From contig CAVYRE010000006.1 in the NCBI GenBank assembly GCA_963770875.1, positions 27,836 to 91,835 of the forward strand: a stretch of DNA of 64,000 nt, given 5' to 3'. Each line of letters begins with the position of its first letter. Positions within the stretch are counted from its first letter, which is position 1. Below, piece by piece: positions 30,246-48,652 of this stretch. The notes below the pieces were generated by a model. It had not been told where the DNA came from, did no database searches, and worked only from the letters and a program-made list of their open reading frames with translations. The DNA is from an uncultured Chloroflexia bacterium (GTDB lineage Bacteria; Chloroflexota; Limnocylindria; QHBO01). The translations under genes and the position numbers were made by a program.

Positions 30246-30261
30246 TAGAACAGATGTTCTA
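30246..30261. promoter_or_regulatory. LexA (SOS) box upstream of imuA
   Basis: TAGAACAGATGTTCTA lies 15 nt upstream of the imuA start. The extended match TGATAGAACrrATGTTCTA is shared with the dnaE2 box. Confidence 0.8.
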
Positions 30262-33374: not shown

Positions 33375-36176
33375 ATGGTGATGAACCTCGTCGACGTAGT
33401 GCATCGAAGCCTGGCCGGATTCGCGGGAAAGGTCCGAGCGCGCCGGGGCGTGCCCGCTGCGTCAGAGACACGACCGTGGCCACGCTTCCGACGGCCAAGA
33501 CCGGATACGGTGATGGTCGCGCTGGCGCTCACAGCCGTGGGCGTGATGGAGACTTGGGTGTTCTTTGGCGGGGCACGCAGCAACACCGAGAACGCCGTTA
33601 CCGGCTTCGCACCGCCGCTGGTCGACCTCGTCGCGGCGGTGTTGGTCGCCAGAGCAGCCCGTTCGGCCACGGGGTGGCGGATTCGCATCGCCTGGGCGTT
33701 CATCGCCCTCGGCATGCTGGTCTACGCCGCAGGCGACGGTATGTGGGCCTGGGTCTCGATCGTCCAGCACGCGGACCCGTTCCCCTCGGCGGCGGACGTG
33801 GCATATGTCGCGTTCTATCCAATCGTCGCCGGCGGTCTGCTGCTCTTCCCCGCCCCCTCGCGCGCAAAGCGCGAGGCGATGCACCTGGCGATCGACTCGG
33901 CGATCGTCGTTGTCGGCGGAGGCATGGTCGTCTGGCACAGCCTGCTCCTGCCGGCGTTGACGGCAGCCGAACCGGACCCGATCACCACGGGCCTGGTCCT
34001 CGGATACCCGATCGGAGACCTCGTCCTGCTGTTCGCCGTGGCGACGATCGCACTTCGGCGCCCGATTGGGATCGCACCCCGAGCACTCGTTGCGCTCGTT
34101 GCTGGGCTGGGGCTCATGTTCGTGGCCGATATCGCCTACGGTGAGCTGACGCTGCTGGGCAGCGACCAGGCAGACTGGGTTGACCTCGTCTACCTCGCTT
34201 CGAGCCTGACCATCGCCGCCGCGGGCTACCTCCAGGCGAATGCCGTCGAGCTGCCGAGTGGCGAGGAGGGAGAGGAGGTGAGTCGCTGGCTCGTGGCGCT
34301 GCCCTACGCCGGCCTGGCCGCGGGTTTCGGCGTGATGCTCACCGCGGCGAATGGCACCGTCACTGGATCGGAGGCCACTCTGCTGGTCGGCGCGGTTGTC
34401 CTGACCATCCTCGTTCTCGTCCGCCAGGAGATCACCAATCGCGAGAACAGCGAGCTGCGGGCGGACCGAGTGCGGCGCGATAGCGAGGCGCACTATCGGT
34501 CGTTGGAGGGCCAGGCGACCGACGCCGTCCTGCTGGTGGATACGGACGGGGTGGTGGCCTATGCCTCGCCATCACTCGAACGGGTCCTCGGCCTCCAGAA
34601 CGCCGCCCTGCTCGGGACGCGCATCACCAGGCTCGCCCATGCCAATGACGCAACCGCGCTCGAGCAGCTGATCGCCGACACGGCCGCAGGGCGCCCGGTC
34701 GATCCACTGGAATGGTCCCTGTGGGGCGCAGATGGCGTGTGGCGGGAGGTTGAGACCATCTCCGCGAACCTGCTCGACGACCCGACGATCGGCAAGATCG
34801 CGCTCACGACTCGCGACGTCCGCGAACGGAAGGCGCTCACCCAGCAGCTCACACAGGCCGGGTTCCACGATCTCCTGACCGAACTCCCCAACCGTGCCCT
34901 CTTCATTAACCGGGTCGGTCAGGCAATGGTGGCTGCGCGTCGGACCGGGCAACCGATCGCGATCTTGAAACTTGACCTCGACGGGTTTACGCGTCTCAAC
35001 GACACGCTCGGCCACGGGATCGGCGACCTCGTCCTTCAAGCGACAGCCCGACGCCTTGTCGGGGCCATTCGCGAGGCGGACACCGCGGCACGAATCAGCG
35101 CTGACGAGTTCGGAGTGCTGTTCGAAGGTCCCAGCACGGTGGCCGATGCCCTCGAGGTCGCTGGCCGGATCCGCGACGCGCTCCACCAGCCGATGACGGT
35201 CGCCGGCGCGACCATCCACCCAACCGCCTGCATCGGCATCGCAAGCAGCGAGGAGGCTGGCGACACGACCGACCCAACGGTCCTCACCCGCAACGCGCAT
35301 GTCGCGCTGGCGGCCGCCTGCCTGCAGGGCGAAGACCGCGTGGTTGTCTTTGCCCCTTCGATGCACCAGGCGCTCGAAGACCGTTTTGTGCTGGAATCGG
35401 ATCTCCGCACCGCGATCGCCGATCACCAACTCGTCCTCTGTTACCAGCCGATTCTCGATCTCGCGACGAACGAGCTGGTCGGGGCCGAGGCGCTCGTCCG
35501 ATGGGACCACCCGACGCGTGGCCGGATCGACCCCGACGCCTTCATCCCTGTGGCCGAAGAGACCGGCTTGATTGGTGAGATCGGGAACTGGGTCCTTCAG
35601 ACCGCGTGCATCGAGGTCGCCGGCTGGGCGCGCCGCACGCCCCACCGCGTCCCGAGGGTGTCGGTCAACCTTGCGTCGTTACAGGTGGGCGATCCCAATC
35701 TGCCGTGGACCGTCCAGTCTGCGTTGGCCCAAGCTGGTGCCGCCCCGGGCTGGCTCACGCTGGAGCTGACCGAGCGCCAGCTCGTGCAAGACACCGCGGA
35801 GGTGCTCGCGCGCTTGCACACGATCCGCGCCCTCGGGGTCCAGATCTCGATCGACGACTTCGGAACCGGCTACTCGTCACTTGCATATCTTCAGCAGTTC
35901 CCGGTCAACACCATCAAGATCGATCGCTCGTTCGTCACCCCACTGGATGACCCCGACCAGGGCCCGGGGCTGGCGGCCGCCATTGTCGAGATCGGCCGCG
36001 CGCTCGCCATCGGGACGATTGCCGAGGGCATCGAGACTGAACGCCAGCGCGACCGCCTGCTGGCGATGGGCTGCGCGCTCGGCCAGGGCTACCTCCTGGG
36101 TCGACCCCTCGAGTCTGCGGGCATGCTCGAGCTGATTGCCGACCCGACCACCTCGAGGGTCGAGCACGCGGCCTGA
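33375..36176 (+). CDS. Membrane sensor protein: multi-TM N-terminal domain, PAS, degenerate GGDEF, EAL (probable c-di-GMP phosphodiesterase)
   Basis: 933 aa, intact. The GGDEF position reads SADEF (RISADEFGVLF). The EAL domain has EALVRW, DDFGTGYSSLAYL and EGIET motifs. Confidence 0.85.
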   Translation: MVMNLVDVVHRSLAGFAGKVRARRGVPAASETRPWPRFRRPRPDTVMVALALTAVGVMETWVFFGGARSNTENAVTGFAPPLVDLVAAVLVARAARSATGWRIRIAWAFIALGMLVYAAGDGMWAWVSIVQHADPFPSAADVAYVAFYPIVAGGLLLFPAPSRAKREAMHLAIDSAIVVVGGGMVVWHSLLLPALTAAEPDPITTGLVLGYPIGDLVLLFAVATIALRRPIGIAPRALVALVAGLGLMFVADIAYGELTLLGSDQADWVDLVYLASSLTIAAAGYLQANAVELPSGEEGEEVSRWLVALPYAGLAAGFGVMLTAANGTVTGSEATLLVGAVVLTILVLVRQEITNRENSELRADRVRRDSEAHYRSLEGQATDAVLLVDTDGVVAYASPSLERVLGLQNAALLGTRITRLAHANDATALEQLIADTAAGRPVDPLEWSLWGADGVWREVETISANLLDDPTIGKIALTTRDVRERKALTQQLTQAGFHDLLTELPNRALFINRVGQAMVAARRTGQPIAILKLDLDGFTRLNDTLGHGIGDLVLQATARRLVGAIREADTAARISADEFGVLFEGPSTVADALEVAGRIRDALHQPMTVAGATIHPTACIGIASSEEAGDTTDPTVLTRNAHVALAAACLQGEDRVVVFAPSMHQALEDRFVLESDLRTAIADHQLVLCYQPILDLATNELVGAEALVRWDHPTRGRIDPDAFIPVAEETGLIGEIGNWVLQTACIEVAGWARRTPHRVPRVSVNLASLQVGDPNLPWTVQSALAQAGAAPGWLTLELTERQLVQDTAEVLARLHTIRALGVQISIDDFGTGYSSLAYLQQFPVNTIKIDRSFVTPLDDPDQGPGLAAAIVEIGRALAIGTIAEGIETERQRDRLLAMGCALGQGYLLGRPLESAGMLELIADPTTSRVEHAA

Positions 36177-36213: not shown

Positions 36214-37152
36214 CTAGAAGATCGCGATCGGGTTCCAGGGCGAGCCGGTGCCTCCCGGCAGGCGCAGCGGCAGCCCCACGACCATGAACTCGAACCGGCC
36301 CTCCTCCTCGCAGGCGCGCGCCAGGTCCTCGAACTGGAGGCTGTCGCTGGCGAGCATGCCCATCGACACGATCTGGAGCGGGTGGATCGGGTATGTCATC
36401 CCCTCGACCACGCTCGGGATCGCTTCGCCGTCGCCATCGGGCAGGAAGGCGGCGATGTGGCGCTCGTGCATCCACGGGATGGTGTCCACGTGGAGGCCGG
36501 CCTTGCCTTCGCCGGTGAGGCCGTTGTCCCAGGGTCCGAGCGCCAGGCGACGCGCGTGGTGACCGGTGCGGAAGACGAGGATGTCGCCCTCCCCCAGGTG
36601 CACCCCCTGGGCCTTCTCACAGGCCTCCAGCTCCTCCCGCCGCACCGCCTCGCCTGGCTCGAGCCACTTCACGCCGCGGAAGCGCGGGATATCGAGCAGG
36701 ACGCCGCGGCCCACCACGCCATTCCCATAGCTGGTGATGTCGAGCGAGGTGGCGCCCTGGCTTGTGAGCACCTCCTCGGCGGGGTGCCCGTTGTACGTCA
36801 GGCCCTTGTACGAGATGTGGCAGAGCGCGTCGATGTGGGTATGGCAGTCGCCATGGCAGGCCATCCCCATGAAGTCGAGCCCGAAGCGCAGGCCGCCCGA
36901 GCCGATGTCGATGTCGTGCCCCTGGCTCACGAAGTGGATGGCGGGGTTCGGGTTGTCGGGGCCGGCAACCGTGTTGATGGGTATCTCCATCGAGACGCGG
37001 CGGCCCGATCGGACGAGCCCAGCAGCCGCCTTCACGTGCTCGGGAGTGATGTAGTTCATCGTGCCGAGCTGGTCGTCGGGACCCCACTTGCCCCAGTTCT
37101 TCACCGACTCGAAGATCTGTTCGAACTCCGCGATGCTGACCTTGCCGGCCAT
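36214..37152 (-). CDS. Cyclase-family (kynurenine formamidase fold) metal-dependent hydrolase
   Basis: HGDCHTHIDALCH fits the HxxxHxDxxxH metal motif of PF04199-type proteins. The ATG at 37152 has GAGGAGG upstream; an alternative start lies at 37188. Confidence 0.7.
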   Translation of the reverse strand: MAGKVSIAEFEQIFESVKNWGKWGPDDQLGTMNYITPEHVKAAAGLVRSGRRVSMEIPINTVAGPDNPNPAIHFVSQGHDIDIGSGGLRFGLDFMGMACHGDCHTHIDALCHISYKGLTYNGHPAEEVLTSQGATSLDITSYGNGVVGRGVLLDIPRFRGVKWLEPGEAVRREELEACEKAQGVHLGEGDILVFRTGHHARRLALGPWDNGLTGEGKAGLHVDTIPWMHERHIAAFLPDGDGEAIPSVVEGMTYPIHPLQIVSMGMLASDSLQFEDLARACEEEGRFEFMVVGLPLRLPGGTGSPWNPIAIF

Positions 37153-37172
37153 CACGCCGTCCTCCTCACGCT

Positions 37173-38409
37173 TCAGACTTCCGGCCACTTCTCGAGCGCG
37201 GCCGACAGCTCAGGGTGTTCCTTCCTTGCCTCCGCGAGGGGCACCCCGCGGACGGCGGCATCGAATGCCTGACGGATGGAGCGGGCGCCCGCCGCGGTCC
37301 CGTCAGGATGGCCATGAACGCCACCGCCAGCCGCCACGGCGAAGTCGATCCCCAGGTCCGCGACGAGGCGCGGCACCATCCCGGCGTGCAGCCCGCCGCC
37401 GGCCACCGGGAGCGATCGCCGCATGCCGAACCACGGGTCGGTGAGCGCGTGGCCGACCTGCTGCGCATCGGCGCGCGAGAAGGGCAGCGTGCCGAGGTGG
37501 CTCGGGTAGATCTCCAGGTCGGCGCCAGCCAGGCGAGGCAGTGTCCCGAGCACGAGGTGCGGACTCATCCCCGACCACGGGGCGCCGGAGAGGGCGCCGG
37601 TGAAGGCGAGGTGGGCCATGATCGGCACACCGATCGCCGGGTCGTCGGCGAGCATCGACGAGCGCCGAGACGCCGACGGTCCAGGCATTCACCAGCAGGG
37701 CCGATGCCCCCGCCTCGACGGCGGCGTGCGCGTTGGCGAGCAGGCGGTCGGGCCGATCGGTGATGTTCACGAAGTAGAGCGTGCGATGGCCGGTCTCCTC
37801 GTAGGCGGCGGTCGCGGCCCGCGCGTGCAGCCGAACGCGGTCGAGGAAGTCGCTCCACGGCTGCGAGACGACCTTCTCGTCGTCCTTCACCGCGTCCGAG
37901 CCACCGATGGCCGACTCGTAGAAGATCGCGGCGCTCTCGCTCGGGGTGAGCCCGATCGCGGGCTTCAGGATCGTCACCAGCAAGGGCCGATCCGGGGCAT
38001 CGACCAGCTCGCGAATCCGATCGAGCCCAACGGCGGGGCCTTTGAAGGCGGAGACGAACGGCTCCGGCAGCGCCAGGTCGATCAGCTTGAGGTCGCGCCA
38101 CGAGGCGCACTCGCCGTACACCGTGGCGAGGAGGAGCGGGATCTGGTTGCTCGTGTTGTGGGTCGGATAAGCGATCTCCATCCCCCAGGCCGGCGCATCG
38201 AGATCGGCGATCTCCCAGGTCTTCAGGACCCGACCGGCGTGGCGGCGCCGGATCAGGTCGGTCTCACCCGCGAGGTCGACCCACGCGCCGCTCGACTGGA
38301 GCTCGGCCAGGCTGCGCGCGTAGCGCTCGACATCGGTCCCGGCGACGGCGCGGGCGCGGTAGGTGGCGACAACGAACTCATTGCCGTCGATCGCCTCGGC
38401 GTCGCCCAT
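37173..38409 (-). pseudogene. RuBisCO large-subunit-like protein (form IV RLP); one frame break near 37670
   Basis: LVTILKPAIGL, AIGGSDAVKDDEKV (KDDE carbamate/metal motif), PIMAHLAFTG, PVAGGGL and AAGGGVHGHPDG. The two pieces are ORFs 37303-38409 and 37173-37688. Confidence 0.85.
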
Positions 38410-39596
38410 CAGCGGCCGGCCTCGACGAGCTGAAGCAGCCCGCCGTGGAGCGGGCCGCGCGGCATGATCGGCCAGATGTCGACCACGCTGCCGTCCTCGA
38501 CGACGTGGTAGGCGTCGAAGTAGTTGACCGCGAAGGGCGTGTAGCCGAGGTGGAAGTCGACCACGTCACCGACCTTCAGGTCGCAGGTCGCATCGGCCTC
38601 GTAGGTGGCGTGCTCCTCGTCGAAGCGGTACGGCTTGAGGTCCTCGTGGCCGAAGATGCGGGGATGGGCCGCGATGCTGCCCACCTCCGCCGAGCCGAAG
38701 GTCTTCTTGCCGAGGTCGAGCACGACCCGGTCCCTGCGACGGCTGATCACCGTCACGACGGCGGTGGTCGCCTTCTTGAAGCGCGGCTCCATCAGGAAGT
38801 GGTAGTCGTCCATGGCGGCATACGAGCCGAGCTGGAGCTCGGTGATGCGCGGGTTGGCACCGGTCCAGAAGGCAGTGGCCGTGCCCGCGGCCGAGAGGAT
38901 CGGGCACGGCACCCCGTTCGCCTCGAGGTGGTCGGCCACGCCGACGAAGTACTCCATCGCCGCCGCCTGCTTCGCGTGGCGCAGCTCGTGGTCCATCTCC
39001 ATCGAGCAGTGGCCCTCGTAGCCGGAGAGGCCGTCCATCCGCAGTCCCGGCAGCGCCTGCACCGCCCGACCGACGGTCAGCGCCTCCTCCGGCGAGTCGA
39101 CACCGGCCCGATGCATGCCGGTGTCCACCTCGACCAGGATCCCCAGCGTCGTGCCGGCCGCCACCGCCGCCGCGGAGAGGGCCGCCACGTCGTCCACGTC
39201 GTCCACGTTCACGGTCACGTTCGCCTCGCGCGCCAGCAGCGCGGCGGCACGGCGCTTCACCGGGTTCACGAGCTGGTTGGCGATCAGCACCTCGTCGGCG
39301 CCGGCCCGCACCATCACGATCGCCTCCCAGACGGTCGCCGCGCAGAGGCCGAAGGCGCCGTGCTCGAGCTGCATGCGAGCGACGTGCGGGCTCTTGTGGT
39401 TCTTGACGTGGCCGCGCAGGCGGGCGTGGAGCTCGGGCAGGCGCGACTGCATGTACGCGAGGTTCGCCTCCAGGATGTCGCGGTCGATCACCAGCGCCGG
39501 AGTAACGAGCTCGTACTTGCTTCGACCGATCGCCGAGCCGTAGTAGCCACGCACGCGGTCGTGGGCCTCGGTGATGATCGGGTCGAGGTCGCGCAT
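38409..39596 (-). CDS. DSD1-family PLP enzyme (alanine-racemase N-domain plus D-Ser-dehydratase-like C-domain), paralog a
   Basis: TPALVIDRDILEANL, HVKNHKSPHVA (PLP Lys), GYEGH, RFDEEHATY. One-nt start/stop overlaps on both sides. Confidence 0.75.
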   Translation of the reverse strand: MRDLDPIITEAHDRVRGYYGSAIGRSKYELVTPALVIDRDILEANLAYMQSRLPELHARLRGHVKNHKSPHVARMQLEHGAFGLCAATVWEAIVMVRAGADEVLIANQLVNPVKRRAAALLAREANVTVNVDDVDDVAALSAAAVAAGTTLGILVEVDTGMHRAGVDSPEEALTVGRAVQALPGLRMDGLSGYEGHCSMEMDHELRHAKQAAAMEYFVGVADHLEANGVPCPILSAAGTATAFWTGANPRITELQLGSYAAMDDYHFLMEPRFKKATTAVVTVISRRRDRVVLDLGKKTFGSAEVGSIAAHPRIFGHEDLKPYRFDEEHATYEADATCDLKVGDVVDFHLGYTPFAVNYFDAYHVVEDGSVVDIWPIMPRGPLHGGLLQLVEAGR

Positions 39597-40759
39597 CAGT
39601 CCCCCCGCTCGAGCATGTCGAGCAGCCAGCGCGACTCCGGCCCGCGCGGCATCACCGGCCAGATGTCGACCACCTTGCCGTCCTCGAGGACGTGGTACGC
39701 CTCGAAGTAGCTGATCGCGAACGGGGTGTAGTTGCACAGGATCTCGACCTTGTCGCCGGTGGTGAGCGGCACGCTCGCGTCGGCGAGGAAGATCGAGTGC
39801 TCCTCGTCGAATCGGTACTTCTCGAGGTCCCAGCCCTTCAGCACGCCGTGCGAGGCGCCCACCGTCTTGCTGCCGGCATCGGTCACGATCCGGTCCGTCC
39901 GCCGGCTGATGACGGATGCCAGCACCGTCACTGCCCAGCCGAAGCGCGGGTCGAGGCCGCGATGATGCCCGTCCATGGTGGCGTAGGAGCCCGGCTGGAT
40001 CTCCGTCACGCCCGGGTAGCGGCTCGTCGTCTCCCAGGTCCCAGTGCCGGCCGCCGACACGATCTGGCACGGCAGCCCGGCGGCCGCCAGGTCGGCGGCG
40101 ATCCCGGTCAACTTGGCCATCGCCTCGCGCGCCATGGCGTGGCGCTTCGTCTCGTCGAACTCGAGCGAGCAGTGGCCCTCGTAGCCGGTGAGCCCCAGGA
40201 ACCGCAGCCCGGGGGACTCGGCGATGCGCTGGGCGAGCGGCAGCGCCTCGGCGGTGGTGGTCACGCCGCAGCGGTGCATCCCCTCGTCCACATCGATCAG
40301 CAGCCCGATCGTGGATCCGGCCTTCACCGCGGCGGCCGACAGCTCGTCGACCTGGGCCGCGTCGTCGACGGAGGCCTTGGCATCGGCCTCCCGCGCCAGG
40401 AGGGCGAGCGCGCGCGTCTTCTCCGGACCGACCACCTCGTTGATGACGAAGACGTCGCGGATCCCAGCGCGCGCCATCACGATCGCCTCCCAGACCGTCG
40501 CGCAGCCAACCCCGATCGCCCCATGCTCGACCTGCATCCGGGCGATGTGCGGGCTCTTGTGCACCTTGACGTGCGCCCGCAGCGTGGCCGGCGCGTCGCG
40601 CATGCCGTCCGCCATCAGGTCGAGGTTGGCGTGCAGCGTGGCCATGTCGAGGAGGAGGGCCGGCGTCGAGACCTCGTCCCGCGGGCGGCCCAGGGCGGAT
40701 CGGTACAGGGTGCGGACGCGCTCGTGCGCCTCGCTGATGAGCGGCGCCGGATCGTTCAT
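39596..40759 (-). CDS. DSD1-family PLP enzyme, paralog b
   Basis: TPALLLDMATLHANL, HVKVHKSPHIA, GYEGH, RFDEEHSIF. Clearly similar to paralog a along its full length (by eye). Confidence 0.75.
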   Translation of the reverse strand: MNDPAPLISEAHERVRTLYRSALGRPRDEVSTPALLLDMATLHANLDLMADGMRDAPATLRAHVKVHKSPHIARMQVEHGAIGVGCATVWEAIVMARAGIRDVFVINEVVGPEKTRALALLAREADAKASVDDAAQVDELSAAAVKAGSTIGLLIDVDEGMHRCGVTTTAEALPLAQRIAESPGLRFLGLTGYEGHCSLEFDETKRHAMAREAMAKLTGIAADLAAAGLPCQIVSAAGTGTWETTSRYPGVTEIQPGSYATMDGHHRGLDPRFGWAVTVLASVISRRTDRIVTDAGSKTVGASHGVLKGWDLEKYRFDEEHSIFLADASVPLTTGDKVEILCNYTPFAISYFEAYHVLEDGKVVDIWPVMPRGPESRWLLDMLERGD

Positions 40760-40788
40760 CGTCTGAGTCTGCTCCGCTTTCGGCGCCG

Positions 40789-41874
40789 CTACTGCGAGCT
40801 GCCGCGCGCCGAGATCGGCCAGCGGTCGACAAGCCGGCCGCCGCGGCTGAGCCACACCTCGTCGTGGAGGTTGAAGGTGGTTCGCACCTGGCCGGGCACC
40901 ATCTCGAGCCGGCTGCCGAGCGCCGGCAGCGGGTCGGCCATCGCGATCCGGGAGTGCTCGTCGCTGATCGCGATGTCGTCCGCGACGAAGCCGATGGGCA
41001 CCGGTGGACCGTATTCGATCCCGACCGCTCGGCGGCCGATGTCGAGCACGATGCGCCCCGGGTGGCGGCTGATCACGGTGCCGCGGATCGCCACCGCGCA
41101 GCGGAACGGGAGGCCGAGGTTGAGCAGCTCCGGCTCCATCAGCGCGTAGACCCCGGCCTGGATCTCGGTGATGGTCGGGTCGGCGAGTGCCTCGCGCAGC
41201 GTCGAGGTACCGGCGCCCGAGACCACCTCCACCGGGAGGCCAGCGCTGCGCAGCGCGGCCACCACCTCGGCCATCAGCGCATAGGCGCGGGCGATCTTGC
41301 CGGCCCGATCCTCGTCGCCGAGCCGGACGCGCCCCTCGTAACCCATGATCCCGCGCAGCCGCAGCCCGGGCGAACGAGCCACGAGGCCCGCCAACTCGCT
41401 CGCCTCCTCGGCCGACCCGACCCCGCAGCGGTGGAGCAGCACGTCGACGTCGATGAGGACCTCGACCGTGACTCCGATCCGTGAAGCTGCCTGCGAGAGC
41501 GCCGCGATCGGCTCGCGGTCGTCGACGGCGACCCCGATCCTCGCCCTCCGCGCGAGCGCGACGAGGCGCTCGATCTTGCCAGGCTCGACGACCTCGTTCG
41601 CGACCAGCACGTCGTCGATGCCGGCCTCGACCATCGCCTCGGCCTCGCCAACCGTGGCGCAGGTGACCCCGACGGCCGGCCCGCCGAGCTGACGCCGCGC
41701 GAGCTCCGGGGTGCGATGGGTCTTGACGTGCGGCCGGAGCGCTTTGCCGGTGCCGCGGAGCAGCTCAGCCATCGCGGCCACATTCGCCTCGAAGATGTCG
41801 AGGTCGACGACGAGCGCCGGGGTCGAGAAGGCGCTGGCCAGGTCAGGCTGCGGCGTGAGCGCGGCGGACGACAT
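40789..41874 (-). CDS. DSD1-family PLP enzyme, divergent paralog c
   Basis: TPALVVDLDIFEANV, HVKTHRTPELA, GYEGR, ISDEHSRI. Same architecture as a and b, but lower similarity. Confidence 0.7.
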   Translation of the reverse strand: MSSAALTPQPDLASAFSTPALVVDLDIFEANVAAMAELLRGTGKALRPHVKTHRTPELARRQLGGPAVGVTCATVGEAEAMVEAGIDDVLVANEVVEPGKIERLVALARRARIGVAVDDREPIAALSQAASRIGVTVEVLIDVDVLLHRCGVGSAEEASELAGLVARSPGLRLRGIMGYEGRVRLGDEDRAGKIARAYALMAEVVAALRSAGLPVEVVSGAGTSTLREALADPTITEIQAGVYALMEPELLNLGLPFRCAVAIRGTVISRHPGRIVLDIGRRAVGIEYGPPVPIGFVADDIAISDEHSRIAMADPLPALGSRLEMVPGQVRTTFNLHDEVWLSRGGRLVDRWPISARGSSQ

Positions 41875-41886
41875 GCGGCCCTCCCC

Positions 41887-43335
41887 TCAGCCGGCCGCCA
41901 GGCGCCGGCGCACGCCGTCGTAGGCGGCGCCGCGCTCGGCGTCGGGCTCGAAGCGGCGCGAGACGGTCACGAGCCGGGCGACCGCCGCGGAGACCGACTC
42001 GTAGACCCCCGCCCCGACGCCGGCCATGATCGCCGCCCCGAACGCGCCGGGCTCCTCCTGCGCGACAACCTCGATCGGCAGCGCGGTCAGGTCGGCCATC
42101 AGCTGCAGCCACCAGGCGTTCCGCGAGCCGCCGCCCGTCGCCCGGACCAGGTCCAGCTCGATCCCCCGCGCCATGAGCAGGTCGAGGCTGAGCGAGAACT
42201 CGCAGGCGATCCCCTCGAGCAGCGCCCGCAGGATGTCGACCGGGGTGGCCGCCAGGGTCATGCCCGCGAACGTCCCGCCGAAGCCGGGAGCGGCCGCCAC
42301 GTGCGGCAGCGGGGTGAAGCGCGCGTCGGCGAAGACGTGGCCCGGACCCGGCCCGGCGAGGGCCAAACCGGCCTCCAGCTCCGGGATGGACAGGTGCAGC
42401 AGCTCGCGCGCCCGGTCCACCACGCTCATCCCGTTCGGGTTGGTCACCAGAATCCCGAAGCCGGTCGGCCCGGGATGCGGGAAGACGTTCATCCCGTCAT
42501 GCACCAACTCCACGGGCCAGCCGGGGCGAACCGGGGTGTTGTAGGAGTGCCACGTCCCGCAGGCGAGCGAGACGACGCCGGGGTCAACCGCCGCGGACCC
42601 GACCGATGCCGCGTAGGTGTCGTAGGCGCCCGTCACGATCAGCGTCGCGGCAGGGAGCCCGAACCGCTCGGCCGCCTCCGGCAGGATCCGCCCGATCGGC
42701 GAGGCGTTGGGCTGGACCTCCGGCAGCCATTTCGGGTCGATCCCGGTCTCCGCGATGCGCTCCGCCGACCAGTTGCCGGTCGCCACGTCGTAGACGGCCC
42801 AGGTCCCCGCGTCGCTCCAGTCGACCACCGGGCGGCCGCTCAGGCGGAGGGCGTAGAACTCGTGCCAGTTCATGAACCAGCGCGTTCGAGCCGCGACCTC
42901 GGGAGAGGTGCTGCGCCACCAGAGGGCTCGATTGACCGGGTCCATCCGACGCGGTACGTGGCCGGTCAGGCGGAACCACTCCTCCTCCGAGCGACGCTCG
43001 CGGGTGACCGCAGCCACCTCGTCGCCGCGCGTATCGGAGGTCATCAGGCACCTGCCGAGGGGCGTCCCGTCCGCCGCCACCGGGAAGACCTCCCGACCCG
43101 ATGAGCTGAACGAGATGGCGACCGGCGGGTCGCCTTTCAGGGCAGGATCCGCGGCCACGGCCCCCAGTGCGTCGTCGAAGGCGGCCCGCGACTCGAGCAC
43201 GTCGACCTCGCTGTGGCCCGGCTCGGGGTGGTAGGAGGGAGCCGGACGACGCGCCTCGGCGAGCGCAGTCCCGTCGAGCGCGTAGGCCCCGACCTTGATC
43301 GCGGTCGACCCCAGGTCGATCCCGATGAGGCTCAT
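41887..43335 (-). CDS. FGGY-family carbohydrate kinase (xylulokinase-like)
   Basis: MSLIGIDLGSTAIKVGAY..., ATGGGSRNAWWLQLMADL, EPGAFGAAIMAG. Start ATG at 43335, internal to ORF 41887-43614. Confidence 0.8.
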   Translation of the reverse strand: MSLIGIDLGSTAIKVGAYALDGTALAEARRPAPSYHPEPGHSEVDVLESRAAFDDALGAVAADPALKGDPPVAISFSSSGREVFPVAADGTPLGRCLMTSDTRGDEVAAVTRERRSEEEWFRLTGHVPRRMDPVNRALWWRSTSPEVAARTRWFMNWHEFYALRLSGRPVVDWSDAGTWAVYDVATGNWSAERIAETGIDPKWLPEVQPNASPIGRILPEAAERFGLPAATLIVTGAYDTYAASVGSAAVDPGVVSLACGTWHSYNTPVRPGWPVELVHDGMNVFPHPGPTGFGILVTNPNGMSVVDRARELLHLSIPELEAGLALAGPGPGHVFADARFTPLPHVAAAPGFGGTFAGMTLAATPVDILRALLEGIACEFSLSLDLLMARGIELDLVRATGGGSRNAWWLQLMADLTALPIEVVAQEEPGAFGAAIMAGVGAGVYESVSAAVARLVTVSRRFEPDAERGAAYDGVRRRLAAG

Positions 43336-43410
43336 CCTGGCGCTCCTTCGACGTTGCTGGGGGACGCTTCGCGGGTCGGGGCCCGGGGGCTTGGACCATC
43401 GTAGCGAAAT

Positions 43411-43420
43411 GTTTGCCGAT
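43411..43420 (+). promoter_or_regulatory. Candidate operator half-site GTTTGCCGAT
   Basis: A variant of the GTTTGCGAT 9-mer, located in the divergent kinase/NTF2 promoter region. Confidence 0.3.
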
Positions 43421-43442
43421 TGGGAACAGAAGGGGTGATTCC

Positions 43443-43472
43443 TTGACCCGCGATCGCGCCGCCCCCTAGAAT
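43443..43472 (+). promoter_or_regulatory. Putative sigma-70 promoter for the NTF2-like gene
   Basis: TTGACC, 18 nt spacer, TAGAAT. This is the best -35/-10 pair seen in the window. Confidence 0.5.
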
Positions 43473-43486
43473 CGGTTCGTTCCGTT

Positions 43487-43495
43487 ATCGCAAAC
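43487..43495 (-). promoter_or_regulatory. Candidate operator half-site GTTTGCGAT (reverse strand)
   Basis: An exact 9-mer copy of the site at 48653, lying just downstream of the -10 element. Together with 43411 it forms an inverted pair flanking the promoter. Confidence 0.3.
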
Positions 43496-43540
43496 AGACG
43501 GGCGAGACCCCGCTCTGAATGCCGGTGCATGGAGCAAACG

Positions 43541-43903
43541 ATGCCCACCACACCCCGCGAGGTCTCCGAAGGGTACTGGGCGGCCGAGTGCCGCCGCGAC
43601 GTCGATGCCGTCATGGCCTTCTACCTCCCCGATGCCACCTACGAGGACGCCGGAGGCCTCCGACGTGGCCAGGCCGAGATCCGTCAGGCCTACGAGGACT
43701 CGAAGAACGCGTATCCGGGCCTCGAGGTTCGCATCCTGCGTGAGTTCACCCACTCCTCCGACACCGCCGGCCTCGAGTACTACGCGGTGCTGATCGACGT
43801 CGCCGGGCAGCGCTTCAAGGTCCGTGGGGTGAACGTCGTGACGGTTCGCGACGGGAAGTTCGTGTCGGTCCGTTCCTACGAGGACGCACCCAGCCTCGAG
43901 TAG
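43541..43903 (+). CDS. SnoaL/NTF2-like fold protein
   Basis: YWAAECRRDVDAVMAFYLPDATYED...VVTVRDGKFVSVRSYED. The ATG at 43541 has GGAG 6 nt upstream; an alternative ATG lies at 43529. Confidence 0.65.
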   Translation: MPTTPREVSEGYWAAECRRDVDAVMAFYLPDATYEDAGGLRRGQAEIRQAYEDSKNAYPGLEVRILREFTHSSDTAGLEYYAVLIDVAGQRFKVRGVNVVTVRDGKFVSVRSYEDAPSLE

Positions 43904-43932: not shown

Positions 43933-44643
43933 ATGCCATCGCCTACACGACCCGAGGGCAGCCCGGTCCGCTCGTACCGGACCCGGTTCCAGCTCATCGA
44001 GGACCCGATCTCCGAGGGCGGGATGTGGGTCAACGGCAAGGCCGAAGGGATCGACTGGGCGGATGTCGTGACCGAGCAGGGGCGGGCGCACGGCGGGAAG
44101 GTGAAGGTCGGCGCCAGGGAGCGGCGGGCGGAGCAGGGGAACCTCGACGGCGGAGAGGCGGCGGCGCCCGAGGGCGACTACGACGACCCGACAGCCGTGC
44201 TCACCGGGTCCTGGGGCCCGGACCAGTTCGTCAAGGCGACCGTCTTCAGCCGGAACCAGACCTCGGACCTCTTCCAGGAGGTCGAGATCCGGTTGCGCAG
44301 CTCCATCGGGCCGCACTGGTGCAGCGGCTACGAGGTCTTCTGGCGCTGCCTCAAGACCGATGAGGGGTACGCCGAGATCGTGCGGTGGAACGGCCCGATC
44401 ATGGGATTCACATCGCTCGCCCGGGCGCAGGGCGCCGAGTACGGGGTGCAAGACGGCGACGTGGTCGAGGCGACGATCGTCGGCAACCGGATCACCTCGT
44501 ACATCAACGGCGTCGAGGTGCTCTCAGCGACCGATGACGCCTTTGCCAACGGCAGCCCGGGGATCGGCTTCAACTTCGGCTGCGGCGACACGTACGTCGA
44601 CCACGGCTTCACGTCGTACGAGGTCGATACGTACGACGGGTAG
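43933..44643 (+). CDS. Hypothetical protein, possibly a concanavalin-A-like/LamG jelly-roll
   Basis: 236-aa intact ORF with a beta-rich C-terminal half (EVFWRCLK...VVEATIVGNRITSYINGVEV...GSPGIGF). No confident family assignment. Confidence 0.4.
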   Translation: MPSPTRPEGSPVRSYRTRFQLIEDPISEGGMWVNGKAEGIDWADVVTEQGRAHGGKVKVGARERRAEQGNLDGGEAAAPEGDYDDPTAVLTGSWGPDQFVKATVFSRNQTSDLFQEVEIRLRSSIGPHWCSGYEVFWRCLKTDEGYAEIVRWNGPIMGFTSLARAQGAEYGVQDGDVVEATIVGNRITSYINGVEVLSATDDAFANGSPGIGFNFGCGDTYVDHGFTSYEVDTYDG

Positions 44644-44649
44644 TCGCGC

Positions 44650-44913
44650 CTATTCGACTCCCGAGATGTCCTCGCCCGGCTCGCCGATGATGCCGATCGT
44701 GGAGAGGATCGGCGTCTGGGTCTTGTCCGGGACGACGATCTTCAGCAGCACACCACTCGCCGGCGCCTCCAGCTCCAGGCTGATCTTCTCGGTCTCGACC
44801 GCGACCAGCGCCTCGCCCTTCGCGACCGTGTCACCCTCGGCCTTCAGCCACTGGGTGACCGTGCCGGTGTCGAGGTCCTGGCCGGCCTGCGGCATGACGA
44901 CCCTGGTGGCCAC
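44650..44913 (-). CDS. Stand-alone lipoyl(biotinyl)-attachment domain protein
   Basis: MPQAGQDLDTGTVTQWLKAEGDTVAKGEALVAVETEKISLELEAPASGVLLKIV resembles E2 lipoyl domains (ETDK-type Lys). There is no E2 catalytic domain. Start is GTG 44913 or ATG 44895. Confidence 0.7.
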   Translation of the reverse strand: MATRVVMPQAGQDLDTGTVTQWLKAEGDTVAKGEALVAVETEKISLELEAPASGVLLKIVVPDKTQTPILSTIGIIGEPGEDISGVE

Positions 44914-44915: not shown

Positions 44916-45683
44916 CTACAGCTCCGCGTTGACGATGAAGCCGGCGTCCACCAGCAGCGTCGCCGAGGTGATGTAGCTGGCGTCGTCGGAGAGGAGGAAC
45001 GAAACCGCGTTCGCGATCTCCTCCGGCTCGCCACCCCGGTGCAGCGCGACCCGCTCCTCGTAGTACTTCAGCGCGACGGGGTCGTCGGTCAGGGGCGCCG
45101 CCATGTCCGTCTTGATCCAGCCCGGCTCGATGGCGTTGACCCGGATCCCGTATTCGCCCACCACGGCGCCCAGGGCCTTGGTCCACATCGAGATGCCGCC
45201 CTTGGTGGCGCAGTACGCGCTCTGCGAGGGCGCACCGACGTGGGCGGAGATGGAGCTGATGCAGACGATCGCCCCGGGATGGCCCTCCTTGCGTATCTGC
45301 TTGGCGGCCTCGGTGGTGACCACCCAAGTCCCGCGCAGGTTCGTCTCGCAGAGGGCGTCCCAGTCATCGACCGTCGTCTCGTCCCAGGGCATGAACGGAT
45401 TGATCGCAGCATTCGAGACCAGGTAGTCGAGACGCCCCCCGCGGCGCGCGACCTCCTGCACCATCTCGATCACCTGGGCCGGGTTGCGCATGTCGGCCAT
45501 CACCGGGAAGCCCTCCCCGCCGGCCTCCTTGATCAGGCCGAGGGTCGTGCTCGGGTCACCGGTCGGCCGGTAGTTGACGCCGACCAGGGCGCCTTCGGCC
45601 GCAAGGCGCACCGACGTCGCCCGGCCCATCCCCCTGGTTGCGCCGGTGACCAGCGCCACCTTGCCTGCAAATCGCTTCTCCAT
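44916..45683 (-). CDS. SDR-family oxidoreductase
   Basis: VALVTGATRGMG, NAAI and the SAYCATK (YxxxK) motif. 255 aa, intact. Confidence 0.85.
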   Translation of the reverse strand: MEKRFAGKVALVTGATRGMGRATSVRLAAEGALVGVNYRPTGDPSTTLGLIKEAGGEGFPVMADMRNPAQVIEMVQEVARRGGRLDYLVSNAAINPFMPWDETTVDDWDALCETNLRGTWVVTTEAAKQIRKEGHPGAIVCISSISAHVGAPSQSAYCATKGGISMWTKALGAVVGEYGIRVNAIEPGWIKTDMAAPLTDDPVALKYYEERVALHRGGEPEEIANAVSFLLSDDASYITSATLLVDAGFIVNAEL

Positions 45684-45704
45684 GACCTGTACTCCTTCCG
45701 GTGC

Positions 45705-46814
45705 CTATCGCACCGCTGTCGCGTCCAGCTTCTTGACGCGCTGCGCAAAGACGTCCATCTCGCCCTCCCCGACCAGGGCACCCATCTCGAGGTCGTAGGT
45801 GCGCTTCTCGCCCGGGTCCAGCTCGATCAGCTCGCCGCGCTCCTTCGCGTCCCAGCGGCCCGCATCGCGGTTCGTGCTCGCCTCGATCGCCACCACGTAG
45901 AGGCTCTCGCCCGGCATGCGCCAAGTGGTCTGGTGCGGGAGCTGGCCCTTGTTGAAGAGCTGGTAGACCCCCAGGCCGATCCTCCGGTTGAGGATCCCCA
46001 CCGGCACCGTCCCATCCGCTTCCGTGAAGGCGTCGTGCTCGAAGCAGCGCTCGGTGTACTCGGGAATCGGCGCATCGAAGATCCGGTAGTTGCCCGCGGG
46101 AGCGGGATCAGTCGGCACGCCCTCGCCCGGGACGAGCAGCTCGGAGCCCTCGTCGACGATCGGGAAGCCCACGTTGCAGTGGTAGAGGAGCATGTGGCTG
46201 GTCCGGTGGAAGCCGGTGTTCTCGACCTCGTCGTGGATCCGGAACGACGACTCGCCGACCCTGGCCTCGATCCGACGGCGGAGGGTCAGGTTCTCCTTGA
46301 AGACGGCCACCTGGTGCACCTCGCCCTCGGCCCACAGGGTGCACTCGTCGCCGTCCCAGCGCTCGCCGTAGCCGGTGAGCCGCGCGGGCAGCGTCCAGAC
46401 CCGCCCCATCATGCCGTAGGTCTCGGTCGGGAACAGATGCGGCTGCTTGAAGTTCTCGAAGCCGTCCTCGCCGCCGATCAGGGTGTGGTCCAGCCCCGCC
46501 GTCGAGACCAGGCCGCCGGGGAAGCTGCGGAACCAGCCCATCCCCTCCGGCTCCGAATACCACGGTCCCGAGTACCCGACCGGCGAGATCCAGCCGATCG
46601 CCGAGCCGTTCATCTCGCAGCGGCCGATGTCGAAGGCGCGATCGACGACCACCTCGAAGGCGAACCCGGTGCCGGTGCGGAACTCCAGCAGCCGAACACC
46701 GCGCTCCATGCCGTCGCCAGCCGTCACCAGCCGCACCCCGGCGACCTGCTCCAGGCGGCCGACGCGACGCATCAGCTCCGCTTGCTTGTAGCTCGCCTTA
46801 AACAGCGCCGGCAC
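45705..46814 (-). CDS. Aldose-1-epimerase-like (DUF4432) protein
   Basis: 369 aa with GVRLLEFRTGTGFAFEVVVDRAFDIGRCEMNG...LYHCNVGFP, the pattern of the DUF4432 / galactose mutarotase-like fold. Confidence 0.65.
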   Translation of the reverse strand: MPALFKASYKQAELMRRVGRLEQVAGVRLVTAGDGMERGVRLLEFRTGTGFAFEVVVDRAFDIGRCEMNGSAIGWISPVGYSGPWYSEPEGMGWFRSFPGGLVSTAGLDHTLIGGEDGFENFKQPHLFPTETYGMMGRVWTLPARLTGYGERWDGDECTLWAEGEVHQVAVFKENLTLRRRIEARVGESSFRIHDEVENTGFHRTSHMLLYHCNVGFPIVDEGSELLVPGEGVPTDPAPAGNYRIFDAPIPEYTERCFEHDAFTEADGTVPVGILNRRIGLGVYQLFNKGQLPHQTTWRMPGESLYVVAIEASTNRDAGRWDAKERGELIELDPGEKRTYDLEMGALVGEGEMDVFAQRVKKLDATAVR

Positions 46815-46945
46815 GGTGCTCCTTTCCGCCGGTCGGCTCGCGCCCGAGACCGCCGGCCGCTCTGAGTTCCCGAGGGTCGGTCACCATTCCGGCCCGGCCG
46901 GCTCGGTCACCGCGTCAGCGTATTTCGCCCCCGGGAACAAACGTG

Positions 46946-46977
46946 CCTAGTGGCCCCGCCTTGACGGGACCACTAGG
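46946..46977 (-). terminator. Strong hairpin downstream of the APC permease (possible intrinsic terminator)
   Basis: CCTAGTGGCCCC-8 nt-GGGACCACTAGG forms a 12-bp stem with one mismatch. On the minus strand it is followed by a weak TTTGTT tract. Confidence 0.4.
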
Positions 46978-47002
46978 CCGTTTCGCCGTGAGGTGGCGGG
47001 GG

Positions 47003-48451: not shown

Positions 48452-48652
48452 CTCCACTCCTTCAGGCTTGTTGCCAATCCTCCCCTCCATCGCGGCGTAC
48501 CGGGTTGCAGTCATGCGTCCGGCGTCAGCAGGCGCCAGGGTGCCTCAGGTGCTCTGCCTACCCTCCATCTTCGAGCTGCCGCCGCCGAGGTCGTTCCCGG
48601 TCTGGGCGGGGCCATGCGTCGCGTGGCTCGCGGGCGAACGAAAGAGCAAAGC

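Follow-up and report, generated by a model that had tools for sequence, protein, structure and literature searches.

The window analysed here, a stretch of 64,000 nucleotides from an uncultured Chloroflexia bacterium (GenBank assembly GCA_963770875.1, contig CAVYRE010000006.1, positions 27,836 to 91,835 of the forward strand; all coordinates below are those of the window unless a locus is named), carries on its minus strand a run of six tightly packed genes for an FGGY-family carbohydrate kinase, three DSD1-type pyridoxal 5'-phosphate (PLP) enzymes, a RuBisCO-like protein (RLP) and a cyclase-fold hydrolase. The window has a G+C content of about 70% and raw lists of open reading frames (ORFs) are therefore noisy; the gene run was picked out by third-position GC together with domain searches against Pfam and NCBIfam. 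The unit opens with the kinase gene (41887-43335; Pfam FGGY_N 123.5 bits, FGGY_C 76.5 bits), continues with the genes of the three PLP enzymes, DSD_A (40789-41874), DSD_B (39596-40759) and DSD_C (38409-39596), each with Ala_racemase_N and D-ser_dehydrat domains above the Pfam cut-offs, and ends with the RLP (37173-38409) and the hydrolase (36214-37188 from a GTG start or 36214-37152 from an ATG start). Direct reading of the junctions gives a 12-nt gap between kinase and DSD_A, a 29-nt gap between DSD_A and DSD_B, and TGATG sequences with 1-nt overlaps at both DSD_B/DSD_C and DSD_C/RLP; RLP and hydrolase are 20 nt apart if the latter starts at the ATG and overlap by 16 nt if it starts at the GTG. 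No terminator-like sites were found within the unit, and the six genes are translationally coupled. A preliminary description made from the DNA letters had proposed this same-strand run with 1-nt overlaps or gaps of 12-29 nt; the junctions bear out its spacing, and the Pfam domain matches all six of its gene identities.

The RLP belongs to the RuBisCO large-subunit superfamily, with 177.6 bits against RuBisCO_large (PF00016; cut-off 30.1) and 35 bits against RuBisCO_large_N (PF02788; cut-off 20.7), and falls under the curated cut-offs of every NCBIfam RLP or RuBisCO model. Its best NCBIfam match is the MtnW model NF007095 (341.9 bits, cut-off 409), and it reaches 295.5 bits against a second MtnW model, TIGR03332 (cut-off 513.6), and 183.8 bits against that of OiaX (cut-off 700). 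Among solved structures its best relatives are the MtnW enolases 2ZVI and 2OEK (about 267 bits, full-length), followed by the uncharacterised RLPs 4NAS and 3FK4. The protein displays the motifs LKPAIGL, VKDDEK, MAHLAF and AAGGGVHGHP, in agreement with the preliminary description, which had noticed both KDDE and GGGVHGHP as well as the replacement of residues specific for ribulose 1,5-bisphosphate (RuBP), KPK by KPA and His-Arg by His-Leu. Relative to the RuBisCO catalytic set (K175, K177, K201, D203, E204, H294, R295, H327 and K334 in spinach numbering), alignment to MtnW and the motifs themselves indicate that K175, the KDDE carbamate/metal site, H294 and both Gly-rich phosphate loops are kept, and that Ala, Leu, Ser and Phe stand in for K177, R295, H327 and K334, respectively. 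Because these four residues are lost while K175, KDDE, H294 and the P1 phosphate site are retained, the RLP is, as judged from its residues, not a bona fide RuBisCO of forms I-III, with RuBP carboxylation predicted to be excluded, and probably binds a monophosphate. Identification as a true RuBisCO was rejected on the four replacements together with a score of 253 bits against the NCBIfam form III RuBisCO model, for a cut-off of 497.

In the alignment to 2OEK, the MtnW segment TTFGKLSLDG pairs with TVYGECASWRD of the RLP, placing a Glu, followed by a Cys, at the position of Lys98 (G. kaustophilus numbering), which is said, in work attributed to Imker et al. 2007, to be the catalytic general base of MtnW. 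All RLPs linked to DSD genes or to the gene of a lipoyl protein described below (BL) carry YGECAS where MtnW has FGKLSLDG, and Glu100 is invariant across all aligned sequences of this kind (subclade A). On these alignments the RLP forms a previously undescribed subclade of its own, here named YGECAS, and lies outside the characterised RLP clades into which, as the preliminary description had cautioned, it might have fallen. A sister subclade (loci L019-L025 and L038), at 53-57% identity, has an HGNI(A/S)(A/S) motif and HLDF instead of HLAF. Several of these loci combine the RLP with a ComB-like 2-phosphosulfolactate phosphatase, a UPF0261 kinase-fold protein and a phosphoenolpyruvate (PEP)-hydrolase-like TIM barrel, the last being the bacterial split form of plant Tm-1. 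The context conserved in L025 (region 10001-15246 of that locus) and L038 (region 8124-14563), likewise uncharacterised, has UPF0261 and the TIM barrel in both, the phosphatase in L025 and a SorC regulator in L038.

The three PLP enzymes share the domain architecture and the PLP-binding lysine (Lys59 equivalent) of the DSD1/D-threonine aldolase family, score 185-220 bits against the solved aldolases 4V15, 7DIB and 6QKB, and are all closest to D-threonine aldolases, the best PDB match of DSD_A being 4V15 at 220 bits; against the BhcC model they reach 224-230 bits, for a cut-off of 690. Alignment to the D-threonine aldolase AxDTA shows that Lys59, Arg157, Tyr187 and the phosphate-binding Thr233 are kept in all three paralogues. 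All three lack the residues that bind Mn/Zn, His347 and Asp349 (the latter a Cys in D-serine dehydratase), together with His193, the proposed base: in DSD_A these positions read Gln, Arg and a gap, in DSD_B Tyr, Pro and Leu, and in DSD_C Tyr, Pro and Met, respectively. Enzymes of this family have D-beta-hydroxy-alpha-amino acids as substrates and rely on the metal to activate the beta-hydroxyl group, be it for dehydration or for aldol cleavage (PMC4401734). Since the metal ligands and the catalytic His are absent, it is unsafe to read D-hydroxyamino-acid dehydratase or aldolase chemistry from the family name; from these alignments, membership appears to hold at the level of the fold and to fail at that of the catalytic site, and racemase, epimerase or other elimination chemistry is predicted to be as likely as the activities that the DSD name implies. 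The earlier designation of these proteins as D-hydroxyamino-acid-type PLP enzymes thus stands for domain architecture and falls for the catalytic residues. The best 120 matches of DSD_A are all orthologues of at least 72% identity from the same metagenomic clade, with no cultured organism and no named pathway among them.

The kinase is xylulokinase-like and under every equivalog cut-off (XylB 197 bits against 380; LsrK 122 against 528), and it matches xylulokinase, LsrK and gluconokinase about equally, with no substrate resolution. At the other end of the unit, the hydrolase belongs to the cyclase/kynurenine formamidase family (PF04199, 58.5 bits, cut-off 23.1), has the uncharacterised 5IBZ as its only PDB relative and displays the string HGDCHTHIDALCH, which may be the counterpart of the KynB HxGTHxDxPxH motif; it is a putative, kynurenine-formamidase-like metal hydrolase.

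Upstream on the minus strand lies BL (44650-44913), an 87-residue free-standing lipoyl-attachment domain protein (Pfam Biotin_lipoyl, PF00364, 58 bits) whose NCBIfam matches are limited to lipoyl domains, namely those of E2 proteins (AcoC, SucB) and the N-terminal lipoyl domain of a long E1 beta. Its ETEK lysine motif is invariant in 20 orthologues, and BL is a predicted lipoyl carrier. It is preceded by an SDR oxidoreductase (44916-45704; adh_short_C2 202 bits), with lactol/aldose 1-dehydrogenases as best matches and pyridoxal 4-dehydrogenase, L-rhamnose 1-dehydrogenase and butanediol dehydrogenase as top NCBIfam matches, all below cut-off; by an aldose-1-epimerase-like DUF4432 protein (45705-46880; 288 bits), whose only PDB relative is 3TY1, a "hypothetical aldose 1-epimerase"; and by an APC-family amino-acid/amine permease (47003-48544; AA_permease 106 bits), which has no NCBIfam equivalog and matches ethanolamine, GABA and FrlA permeases weakly. 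Further upstream, still on the minus strand, follow a frame-broken YhfZ-family regulator (48767-49647; two tblastn pieces in two frames covering residues 1-295, 74% identical to the protein of locus L004, which carries PF14502 HTH_41 and PF14503 YhfZ_C and thus places the gene in the YhfZ family), a HAD-IA phosphatase (49747-50508; found by tblastn to its L004 orthologue, a beta-PGM-family HAD by NCBIfam), and a frame-broken class II ketose-bisphosphate aldolase (50581-51352; also by tblastn to L004, where the orthologue has sub-cut-off NCBIfam matches of class II fructose-bisphosphate aldolase (FBA), tagatose-bisphosphate aldolase and cbbA types). On the plus strand, 51516-53399 encodes by tblastn the E1 alpha and a frame-broken E1 beta of a thiamine-dependent 2-oxoacid/acetoin dehydrogenase; the L010 orthologues score 342 bits against the NCBIfam pyruvate dehydrogenase (PDH) E1 alpha model (cut-off 394) and 405 bits for E1 beta (above the subfamily cut-off of 321). 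No E2 core and no E3 gene was found within the flanks of the RLP loci. Of these neighbours the preliminary description had recognised the permease and the YhfZ-like regulator, both found as it said, and had overlooked BL, E1 alpha/beta, the class II aldolase and the HAD phosphatase.

Two further plus-strand genes lie between BL and the kinase gene, those of a SnoaL-like protein (43541-43903; Pfam SnoaL_2) and of U237, a conserved hypothetical protein of 236 residues (43933-44643) with no Pfam match and about 2,000 close homologues in metagenomes at 66-94% identity. U237 is always paired with the SnoaL-like protein, and the pair recurs in 10 loci. An AlphaFold model of U237 (mean pLDDT 70, core blocks mostly 80-97, residues 22-84 poorly predicted) suggests a concanavalin-A-like beta-sandwich resembling CBM66, galectins and GH16 glucanases, a generic carbohydrate-binding fold with no substrate resolution. 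The 205-bp divergent intergenic region between the kinase and SnoaL genes (43336-43540) contains, at 43443-43472 on the plus strand, the sole sigma-70-like promoter match in the 14-kb region scanned, and is likely a control region for the YhfZ or a DeoR regulator. A perfect-looking 15-bp stem with 10 G-C pairs and a 4-nt loop, followed by a T-rich tract, lies on the minus strand between the permease stop codon and DUF4432 (46945-46978) and could be an internal terminator, an attenuator or an mRNA-stabilising hairpin of the upstream operon. A scan of 35-60 kb of the window for riboswitches, which could name a ligand, gave no Rfam match at E <= 1.

To place this arrangement in a comparative frame, we collected relatives of the RLP with its reading frame corrected (see below), obtaining from the protein collection 325 with E <= 1e-20, of which the top 120 share 61-91% identity with it; the few that carry organism names are from Chloroflexota metagenome-assembled genomes (MAGs). 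A scan of species-representative genomes gave 34 Chloroflexota loci, from Candidatus Limnocylindria, "Chloroflexia" soil MAGs, Anaerolineae, Caldilineaceae and Ardenticatenaceae, and one locus from a MAG labelled Desulfobacterales. The closest genomes are of the class Candidatus Limnocylindria, and as the nearest is 89% identical at the DNA level, the window represents a species of its own. We mapped 33 query proteins by tblastn onto all loci and counted neighbours over 37 loci, several of them with short flanks: BL accompanies the RLP in 22, DSD_A in 21, FGGY in 19, DSD_C in 18, the hydrolase in 17 and DSD_B in 14. The kinase gene adjoins the RLP in its 19 loci always together with DSD_A, and the 17 occurrences of the hydrolase comprise types 1 and 5 below, the flank-limited L008 and L033 and a 50-residue remnant in L001. 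RLP identity across the loci ranges from 49 to 91%, and the cluster is found in about 25 species-level genomes. It is common in Chloroflexota metagenomes from soil and freshwater, and 90%-identity clusters of RLP, DSD_A and U237 number in the hundreds.

The loci sort into five types of context. Type 1 (the window, L002, L005, L016, L027, L028, L030, L034 and L036, with L006 and L012 incomplete) has the order YhfZ, APC permease, DUF4432, SDR, BL, in some cases SnoaL and U237 on the opposite strand, FGGY, DSD_A, DSD_B, DSD_C, RLP and hydrolase, and type 5 (L004, L011, L014) resembles it without DUF4432 and DSD_B. Type 2 (L010, L017, L018) runs DeoR, BL, FGGY, DSD_A, DSD_B, DSD_C, RLP, without hydrolase and APC permease, with divergent E1 beta/E1 alpha genes in L010 and L017 and with DeoR not found in L018. 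Type 3 (L026, L029, L031, L032) combines DeoR, YhfZ and a ribose-type ABC importer, whose genes lie with SnoaL and U237 on the strand opposite the RLP, with BL, FGGY, DSD_A and RLP, followed directly by the class II aldolase in L026 and L032; its solute-binding protein matches only generic ribose/monosaccharide binders, with no substrate resolution. The minimal type 4 (L009, L013, L037) consists of divergent E1 beta/alpha genes and DeoR, BL, RLP and UPF0261, BL lying 4 nt upstream of the RLP and a UPF0261 protein standing in place of FGGY and DSD_A, with a class I aldolase in L013. An aldolase is linked in four context types and E1 alpha/beta in types 1, 2 and 4.

Clean co-variation of modules, namely FGGY with DSD_A, the APC permease with SDR and cyclase-fold hydrolase, and DSD_B with DUF4432 (both carried by types 1 and 2), defines a conserved core of kinase, DSD_A, RLP and BL, the last being the most constant RLP neighbour. 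DSD_B (types 1 and 2 only), DSD_C (types 1, 2 and 5) and the hydrolase are accessory modules, so that the "triple DSD1 plus cyclase" arrangement of the window is the most elaborate version. The unit initially singled out, a kinase with triple DSD1 and a cyclase, is therefore real in the window and is not the conserved set, in which only DSD_A and FGGY travel consistently with the RLP; the expectation that the co-occurrence might recur in other genomes is borne out over 37 loci, down to 49% RLP identity. Since work published in 2025 identified the UPF0261 fold as that of an ATP-dependent kinase (MarK; PMC12624787), "kinase + RLP" is the invariant pair. As the arrangement recurs in many independent genomes, it is not due to chance. 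Furthermore, the active-site columns of the RLP are constant across context types within the YGECAS subclade and hence its substrate is probably the same with or without DSD_B, DSD_C, the hydrolase and the APC permease.

A natural deletion variant is present in L001 (GCA_936418255.1, 9546-11418), where an intact RLP, 90% identical to that of the window, directly follows RpiB and is itself followed by the last 50 hydrolase codons; compared with the window, about 16 kb spanning the three DSD genes, E1 and the aldolase is gone, together with most of the hydrolase. The adjacency of TIM and RpiB to the RLP in L001 and L007 was considered as a clue to a tetrose phosphate and dropped to little weight, because the window copies of both pass the housekeeping rpiB and tpiA equivalog cut-offs and L001 is a deletion derivative.

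The surroundings of the cluster are chromosomal, with the housekeeping genes rpsT, eno, pgk, gap, carAB and bioY in the flanks of the window; a mobile element was rejected on these glycolysis, carAB and ribosomal-protein genes. Convergent with the last gene of the operon is a plus-strand gene (33375-36176) for a 933-residue membrane-anchored PAS-GGDEF-EAL protein; this gene and the adjacent PPK2 gene are absent at this place in L002 and L028, where a RecA-like gene follows the hydrolase. In the window, 26262-30258 and 19784-23486 (minus strand) hold a short RecA-like protein (29443-30258) and pol III alpha-type fragments, and in the syntenic L002 genes an IMS_C (Y-family polymerase-like) protein comes after the RecA-like gene. 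Together these genes resemble an ImuA-ImuB-DnaE2 mutagenesis cassette, which in relatives without the GGDEF-EAL/PPK2 insert lies directly downstream of the RLP cluster.

On the other side, past RpiB and TIM, the plus strand carries an lsr-like module (55520-59352) of a Glyoxalase_4 protein, a D-2-hydroxyacid dehydrogenase, a second FGGY kinase (57140-58678) that passes the LsrK (autoinducer-2 kinase) equivalog (611 bits against 528) and an LsrF-type 3-hydroxy-5-phosphonooxypentane-2,4-dione thiolase that passes its own cut-off (336 against 297); no LsrG or LsrB gene was recognised in it. Ten further loci have the module next to their RLP cluster, in many cases accompanied by an RPE-like gene, SorC and RpiB-Dak1-Dak2-TIM; it is absent within the 10-kb flanks of types 3, 4 and 5. 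In type 1, DUF4432 is part of the operon on the RLP side, and in type 2 it is found on the opposite strand next to the lsr-like genes; this change of place hints at a connection between the RLP and lsr-like modules.

Overall, these data lead us to favour, tentatively and with a little less than balanced confidence, a real, chromosomal and substrate-specific catabolic cluster of uncultured Chloroflexota in which a kinase step would be followed by enolisation by the RLP and by cleavage through aldolase or E1 and lipoyl protein; the cluster probably encodes a new route for the breakdown of a nitrogen-bearing sugar derivative. A catabolic role is probable, and the loci carry transporters and YhfZ-, DeoR- and SorC-type regulators. 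The PLP enzymes and the APC permease argue that the starting compound bears an amino group, and the type 3 ribose-type ABC importer, the mutarotase-like DUF4432 and the lactol-dehydrogenase-like SDR that it is sugar-like; since variants swap the APC permease for the ribose-type importer, a sugar-like compound is favoured over a plain amino acid. A hydroxy-amino acid, an amino-sugar acid or a glycated amino acid, as put forward at the outset, is plausible as substrate.

In the favoured scheme an amino-sugar, amino-aldonate or glycated amine would be imported by the APC permease or, in variants, by the ribose-type ABC system. In the full version the mutarotase-like DUF4432 protein, the SDR and the hydrolase would ready the substrate, for example by conversion of a lactol to a lactone or of an amide to an open-chain acid, the metal-free DSD1-like PLP enzymes would epimerise it and/or strip its alpha-amino group, and the FGGY kinase would phosphorylate a terminal hydroxymethyl group. 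The RLP would then enolise a monophosphorylated keto or diketo compound at its carbamylated Lys-Asp-Glu/Mg2+ site, acting as a tautomerase, isomerase, beta-eliminase or decarboxylase rather than in carboxylation, and the class II aldolase and/or the acetoin-dehydrogenase-like E1 with the lipoyl protein would split the product into a triose phosphate and a C2/C3 unit. Enolisation of keto-sugar or keto-acid phosphates is common to all characterised RLPs, i.e. MtnW, the R. rubrum isomerase and the apiose RLPs (PMC6302742).

Several points weigh against this scheme. The order of its steps is inferred from gene content alone, the metal and base residues found in the closest characterised relatives are absent from the PLP enzymes, which may thus catalyse another type of reaction, and L001 and L007 hold an RLP without kinase, PLP or BL genes. 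Moreover, housekeeping genes that happen to lie close by could account for E1 alpha/beta, the aldolase, RpiB and TIM, the lipoyl protein is not accounted for by any known RLP pathway, and we know of no precedent for a cyclase-fold hydrolase in lactone hydrolysis. A bolder and distinctly unlikely extension is that YGECAS RLPs have a reaction type new to the superfamily, in which enolisation would be followed by beta-elimination of an amine from a phosphorylated amino-deoxy-ketose made by the kinase, or the resulting diketone would be tautomerised, with a dedicated free-standing lipoyl carrier and E1 cleaving the diketone oxidatively.

Two other routes each fit part of the evidence, and neither explains all genes. 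In the first, which we consider unlikely, a glycated pentose or hexose amine would be phosphorylated by FGGY, and the RLP would form a 2,3-enediolate and expel the C1 amine, yielding a 1-deoxy-2,3-diulose phosphate of the phospho-4,5-dihydroxy-2,3-pentanedione (P-DPD) type for LsrF or for E1 and lipoyl protein. The RuBisCO enediolate itself beta-eliminates its C1 substituent to 1-deoxy-pentodiulose-5-phosphate, Amadori compounds decay to 1-deoxyosones by the same chemistry, and the nearest characterised RLPs act on 2,3-diketo phosphates. Such a route would also give meaning to the bona fide LsrK and LsrF, the glyoxalase-fold proteins and the 2-hydroxyacid dehydrogenase that adjoin the cluster in the window and 10 other loci, to the linkage suggested by the placement of DUF4432 in type 1 versus type 2, and to the weak similarity of the APC permease to the fructoselysine transporter FrlA. 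However, it leaves up to three PLP enzymes without a clear role, as an alpha-amino group that is N-substituted is unable to form an aldimine; no known deglycase or Amadori enzyme is present; and the lsr-like module, missing near the cluster in three context types, may be an independent autoinducer-2 (AI-2)/DPD pathway.

The second route, likewise unlikely in our view, is an oxidative one for amino-sugars or amino-aldonates: DUF4432 would anomerise an amino-aldose, the SDR oxidise it and the hydrolase open the ring to a 2-amino-2-deoxy-aldonate, i.e. a D-alpha-amino-beta-hydroxy acid, from which the DSD-like enzymes would, by epimerisation and deamination, make a keto-deoxy acid for phosphorylation by a gluconokinase-like FGGY, the RLP serving as isomerase or as beta-keto-acid decarboxylase as in apionate pathways. 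It draws on the lactol/aldose 1-dehydrogenase matches of the SDR, the resemblance of DUF4432 to aldose 1-epimerase, the strict co-variation of the hydrolase with SDR and APC permease and the match of FGGY to FGGY-type gluconokinase. RLP decarboxylases of 3-oxo acid-sugar phosphates exist (OiaC/OiaX), and PLP enzymes deaminate D-glucosaminate in Pseudomonas and Salmonella. The product would moreover suit the DSD1 family, whose substrates are D-beta-hydroxy-alpha-amino acids (PMC4401734), yet none of the three paralogues has the Mn/Zn site with which DSD and D-threonine aldolases activate the beta-hydroxyl, a 2-keto-3-deoxy-phosphoaldonate is no obvious substrate of an RLP or a class II FBA, the OiaX model is missed by far (184 bits against 700), and the lipoyl protein is left unexplained.

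A partly fortuitous juxtaposition, in which RLP and BL, with or without a kinase, would be one system and FGGY, the three DSD1 genes and the hydrolase a separate amino-acid pathway fused to it in some lineages, is decidedly improbable. It could explain why the RLP occurs with BL and UPF0261 but without DSD or FGGY in L009, L013 and L037, and alone beside RpiB/TIM in L001 and L007. The adjacency of FGGY, DSD_A and RLP with overlapping or nearly overlapping stop and start codons is nevertheless kept from 91% down to 49% RLP identity and in four transporter/regulator contexts, and BL lies upstream of FGGY wherever the upstream flank reaches, which sets the kinase and PLP genes between BL and RLP.

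The RLP gene might also be a genuine pseudogene of an operon decaying in this genome, since a +1 frameshift divides its ORF; this break, given near 37670 in the preliminary description, is present and consists of a single inserted base at 37659 (an extra G on the minus strand). There the window reads GCGCTC-G-TCGATG and four relatives read GCxCTC-TCxATG in a DNA alignment, encoding ALSM within the conserved VGVSALSMLADDP. Decay might likewise be read from other frame-broken genes in the window, at least four with YhfZ, class II aldolase, E1 beta and a second SDR, and from the related genome L001, which kept just the RLP and a hydrolase stub of 50 residues. Frame-broken or fragmented genes lie at 48767-49647, 50581-51352, 52476-53399, 53444-54176, 12705-14762 and 19784-23486. 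The inserted base is however the sole lesion, neither half of the RLP contains stop codons, and its removal gives a protein of 411 residues, the length of the closest homologues. The ratio of nonsynonymous to synonymous substitution rates (dN/dS), computed with the two nearest orthologues, falls from 0.13-0.17 ahead of the break to 0.064-0.085 downstream, so that the nominally untranslated half is under purifying selection at least as strong as the first. The clearly essential carB and a DNA pol III alpha-type gene also appear in fragments in the window, and similarly scattered frame breaks occur in loci from MFD-series MAGs; their number suggests an indel-rich, long-read-type assembly and not genome decay. 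With orthologues intact, dN/dS low and at least four neighbours frame-broken as well, the RLP break is almost certainly an assembly or sequencing indel and the gene predicted to be functional in the lineage; the pseudogene reading, very improbable, was rejected on the intact 411-residue orthologues and the purifying selection past the break, and the dead gene about which the preliminary description had warned gives way to a frameshift that looks artefactual.

Finally, that the RLP is simply the methionine-salvage enolase MtnW among unrelated neighbours, although MtnW is its best NCBIfam and PDB match and relatives are annotated at source (Joint Genome Institute, JGI) as "2,3-diketo-5-methylthiopentyl-1-phosphate enolase", is extremely improbable and was rejected, as both equivalog cut-offs are missed (342 against 409, 295 against 514), the invariant Glu of the GECAS motif occupies the Lys98 position, the start/stop overlap with DSD_C is kept across genomes and argues for a shared pathway, and no mtn-type gene (mtnK, mtnA, mtnB, mtnX or mtnD) was recognised among the Pfam/NCBIfam-scanned ORFs of the 64-kb window, whose sole nucleoside phosphorylase is uridine-phosphorylase-like.

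Every RLP whose function has been worked out has brought to light chemistry not expected of the RuBisCO scaffold, from the methionine-salvage enolase and the isomerase linking 5'-methylthioadenosine (MTA) to isoprenoids to the apiose decarboxylase and transcarboxylase, and has informed ideas on the evolution of carboxylation. The present subclade stands apart by its Glu-Cys in place of the MtnW catalytic Lys and by the unprecedented and evolutionarily stable company it keeps, with FGGY or UPF0261 kinases, DSD1-type PLP enzymes that lack the metal site and a lipoyl carrier. Limnocylindria are abundant yet uncultured, and the pathway may matter for the soil turnover of organic nitrogen or sugar derivatives. 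Should amine beta-elimination with lipoyl protein and E1 prove true, soil bacteria would have a new and widespread pathway for nitrogen from glycated compounds or amino-sugars, and an RLP would for the first time be tied functionally to a lipoyl protein. We consider the relevance moderate to high for enzymologists and for soil microbial ecology, within the limit set by hosts that are purely metagenomic. From the comparative map, orthologues that are intact and a minimal set of genes can be chosen for expression and for substrate screens.

Among known systems, MtnW/YkrW of B. subtilis and G. kaustophilus (2ZVI, 2OEK) is the closest characterised relative of the RLP by sequence, sharing the KDDE site, the K175 and H294 equivalents, the GGG...GGGxHGHP phosphate site and the loss of the second phosphate site; it differs from the RLP, which scores below its cut-offs, at the Lys98 position and in context, with sugar kinase, PLP and lipoyl genes here and no methionine-salvage genes recognised nearby. 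With the R. rubrum RLP, a 5-methylthio-D-ribulose-1-phosphate 1,3-isomerase, and the dihydroxyacetone phosphate (DHAP) shunt, an RLP whose substrate is a monophosphorylated pentulose comes after a kinase and before a step that cleaves or rearranges C-C bonds (PMC6302742). A trio of kinase, RLP and aldolase is also found in the present cluster, here with an FGGY- or UPF0261-type kinase, added PLP enzymes and lipoyl carrier and no MTA-related genes, a comparison made by pathway logic and not by curated model or structure. In the D-apiose/apionate pathways, an aldose is converted via lactone and acid to a keto-acid and a dedicated kinase precedes the RLP (the decarboxylase OiaC or the transcarboxylase/hydrolase OiaX); SDR, hydrolase, kinase and RLP of this cluster could play analogous parts, although the kinase there is of the DUF1537 type, PLP enzymes and a lipoyl protein are absent, and the OiaX cut-off is far from reached.

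Partners of the RLP compare in a similar way with their own families. DSD1 enzymes (AxDTA 4V15, D-serine dehydratase, the D-3-hydroxyaspartate aldolase BhcC) have the same two-domain architecture, with PLP lysine, Arg157, Tyr187 and Thr kept here, whereas His347, Asp/Cys349 and His193 are lacking in all three paralogues and the BhcC cut-off is missed. In the Lsr AI-2/DPD pathway (LsrK, LsrG, LsrF) an FGGY kinase yields a phosphorylated 2,3-diketone that is isomerised and cleaved to DHAP and an acetyl unit; genuine LsrK and LsrF genes lie beside the cluster in the window and 10 other loci, but the FGGY of the cluster is not LsrK, no LsrG was recognised in the lsr-like module, and an RLP as isomerase or eliminase would be without precedent there. 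Lastly, BL aligns to the E2 lipoyl domains of AcoABC/PDH systems and to the N-terminal lipoyl domain of a long E1 beta (model positions 2-85), differing in that it is a separate protein of 87 residues with no E2 core or E3 within the flanks, and its linkage to an RLP has not been described. Neither full-text literature nor curated NCBIfam models yielded a description of this gene cluster, in keeping with the preliminary view that it has no characterised counterpart. What emerges is not a categorically new system but an RLP subfamily that is itself new, set in a new kind of pathway and partnered, without precedent, by a lipoyl protein, and by analogy the cluster would work like the known pathways that lead from kinase through RLP to C-C cleavage, namely methionine salvage, the MTA shunts and apionate catabolism.

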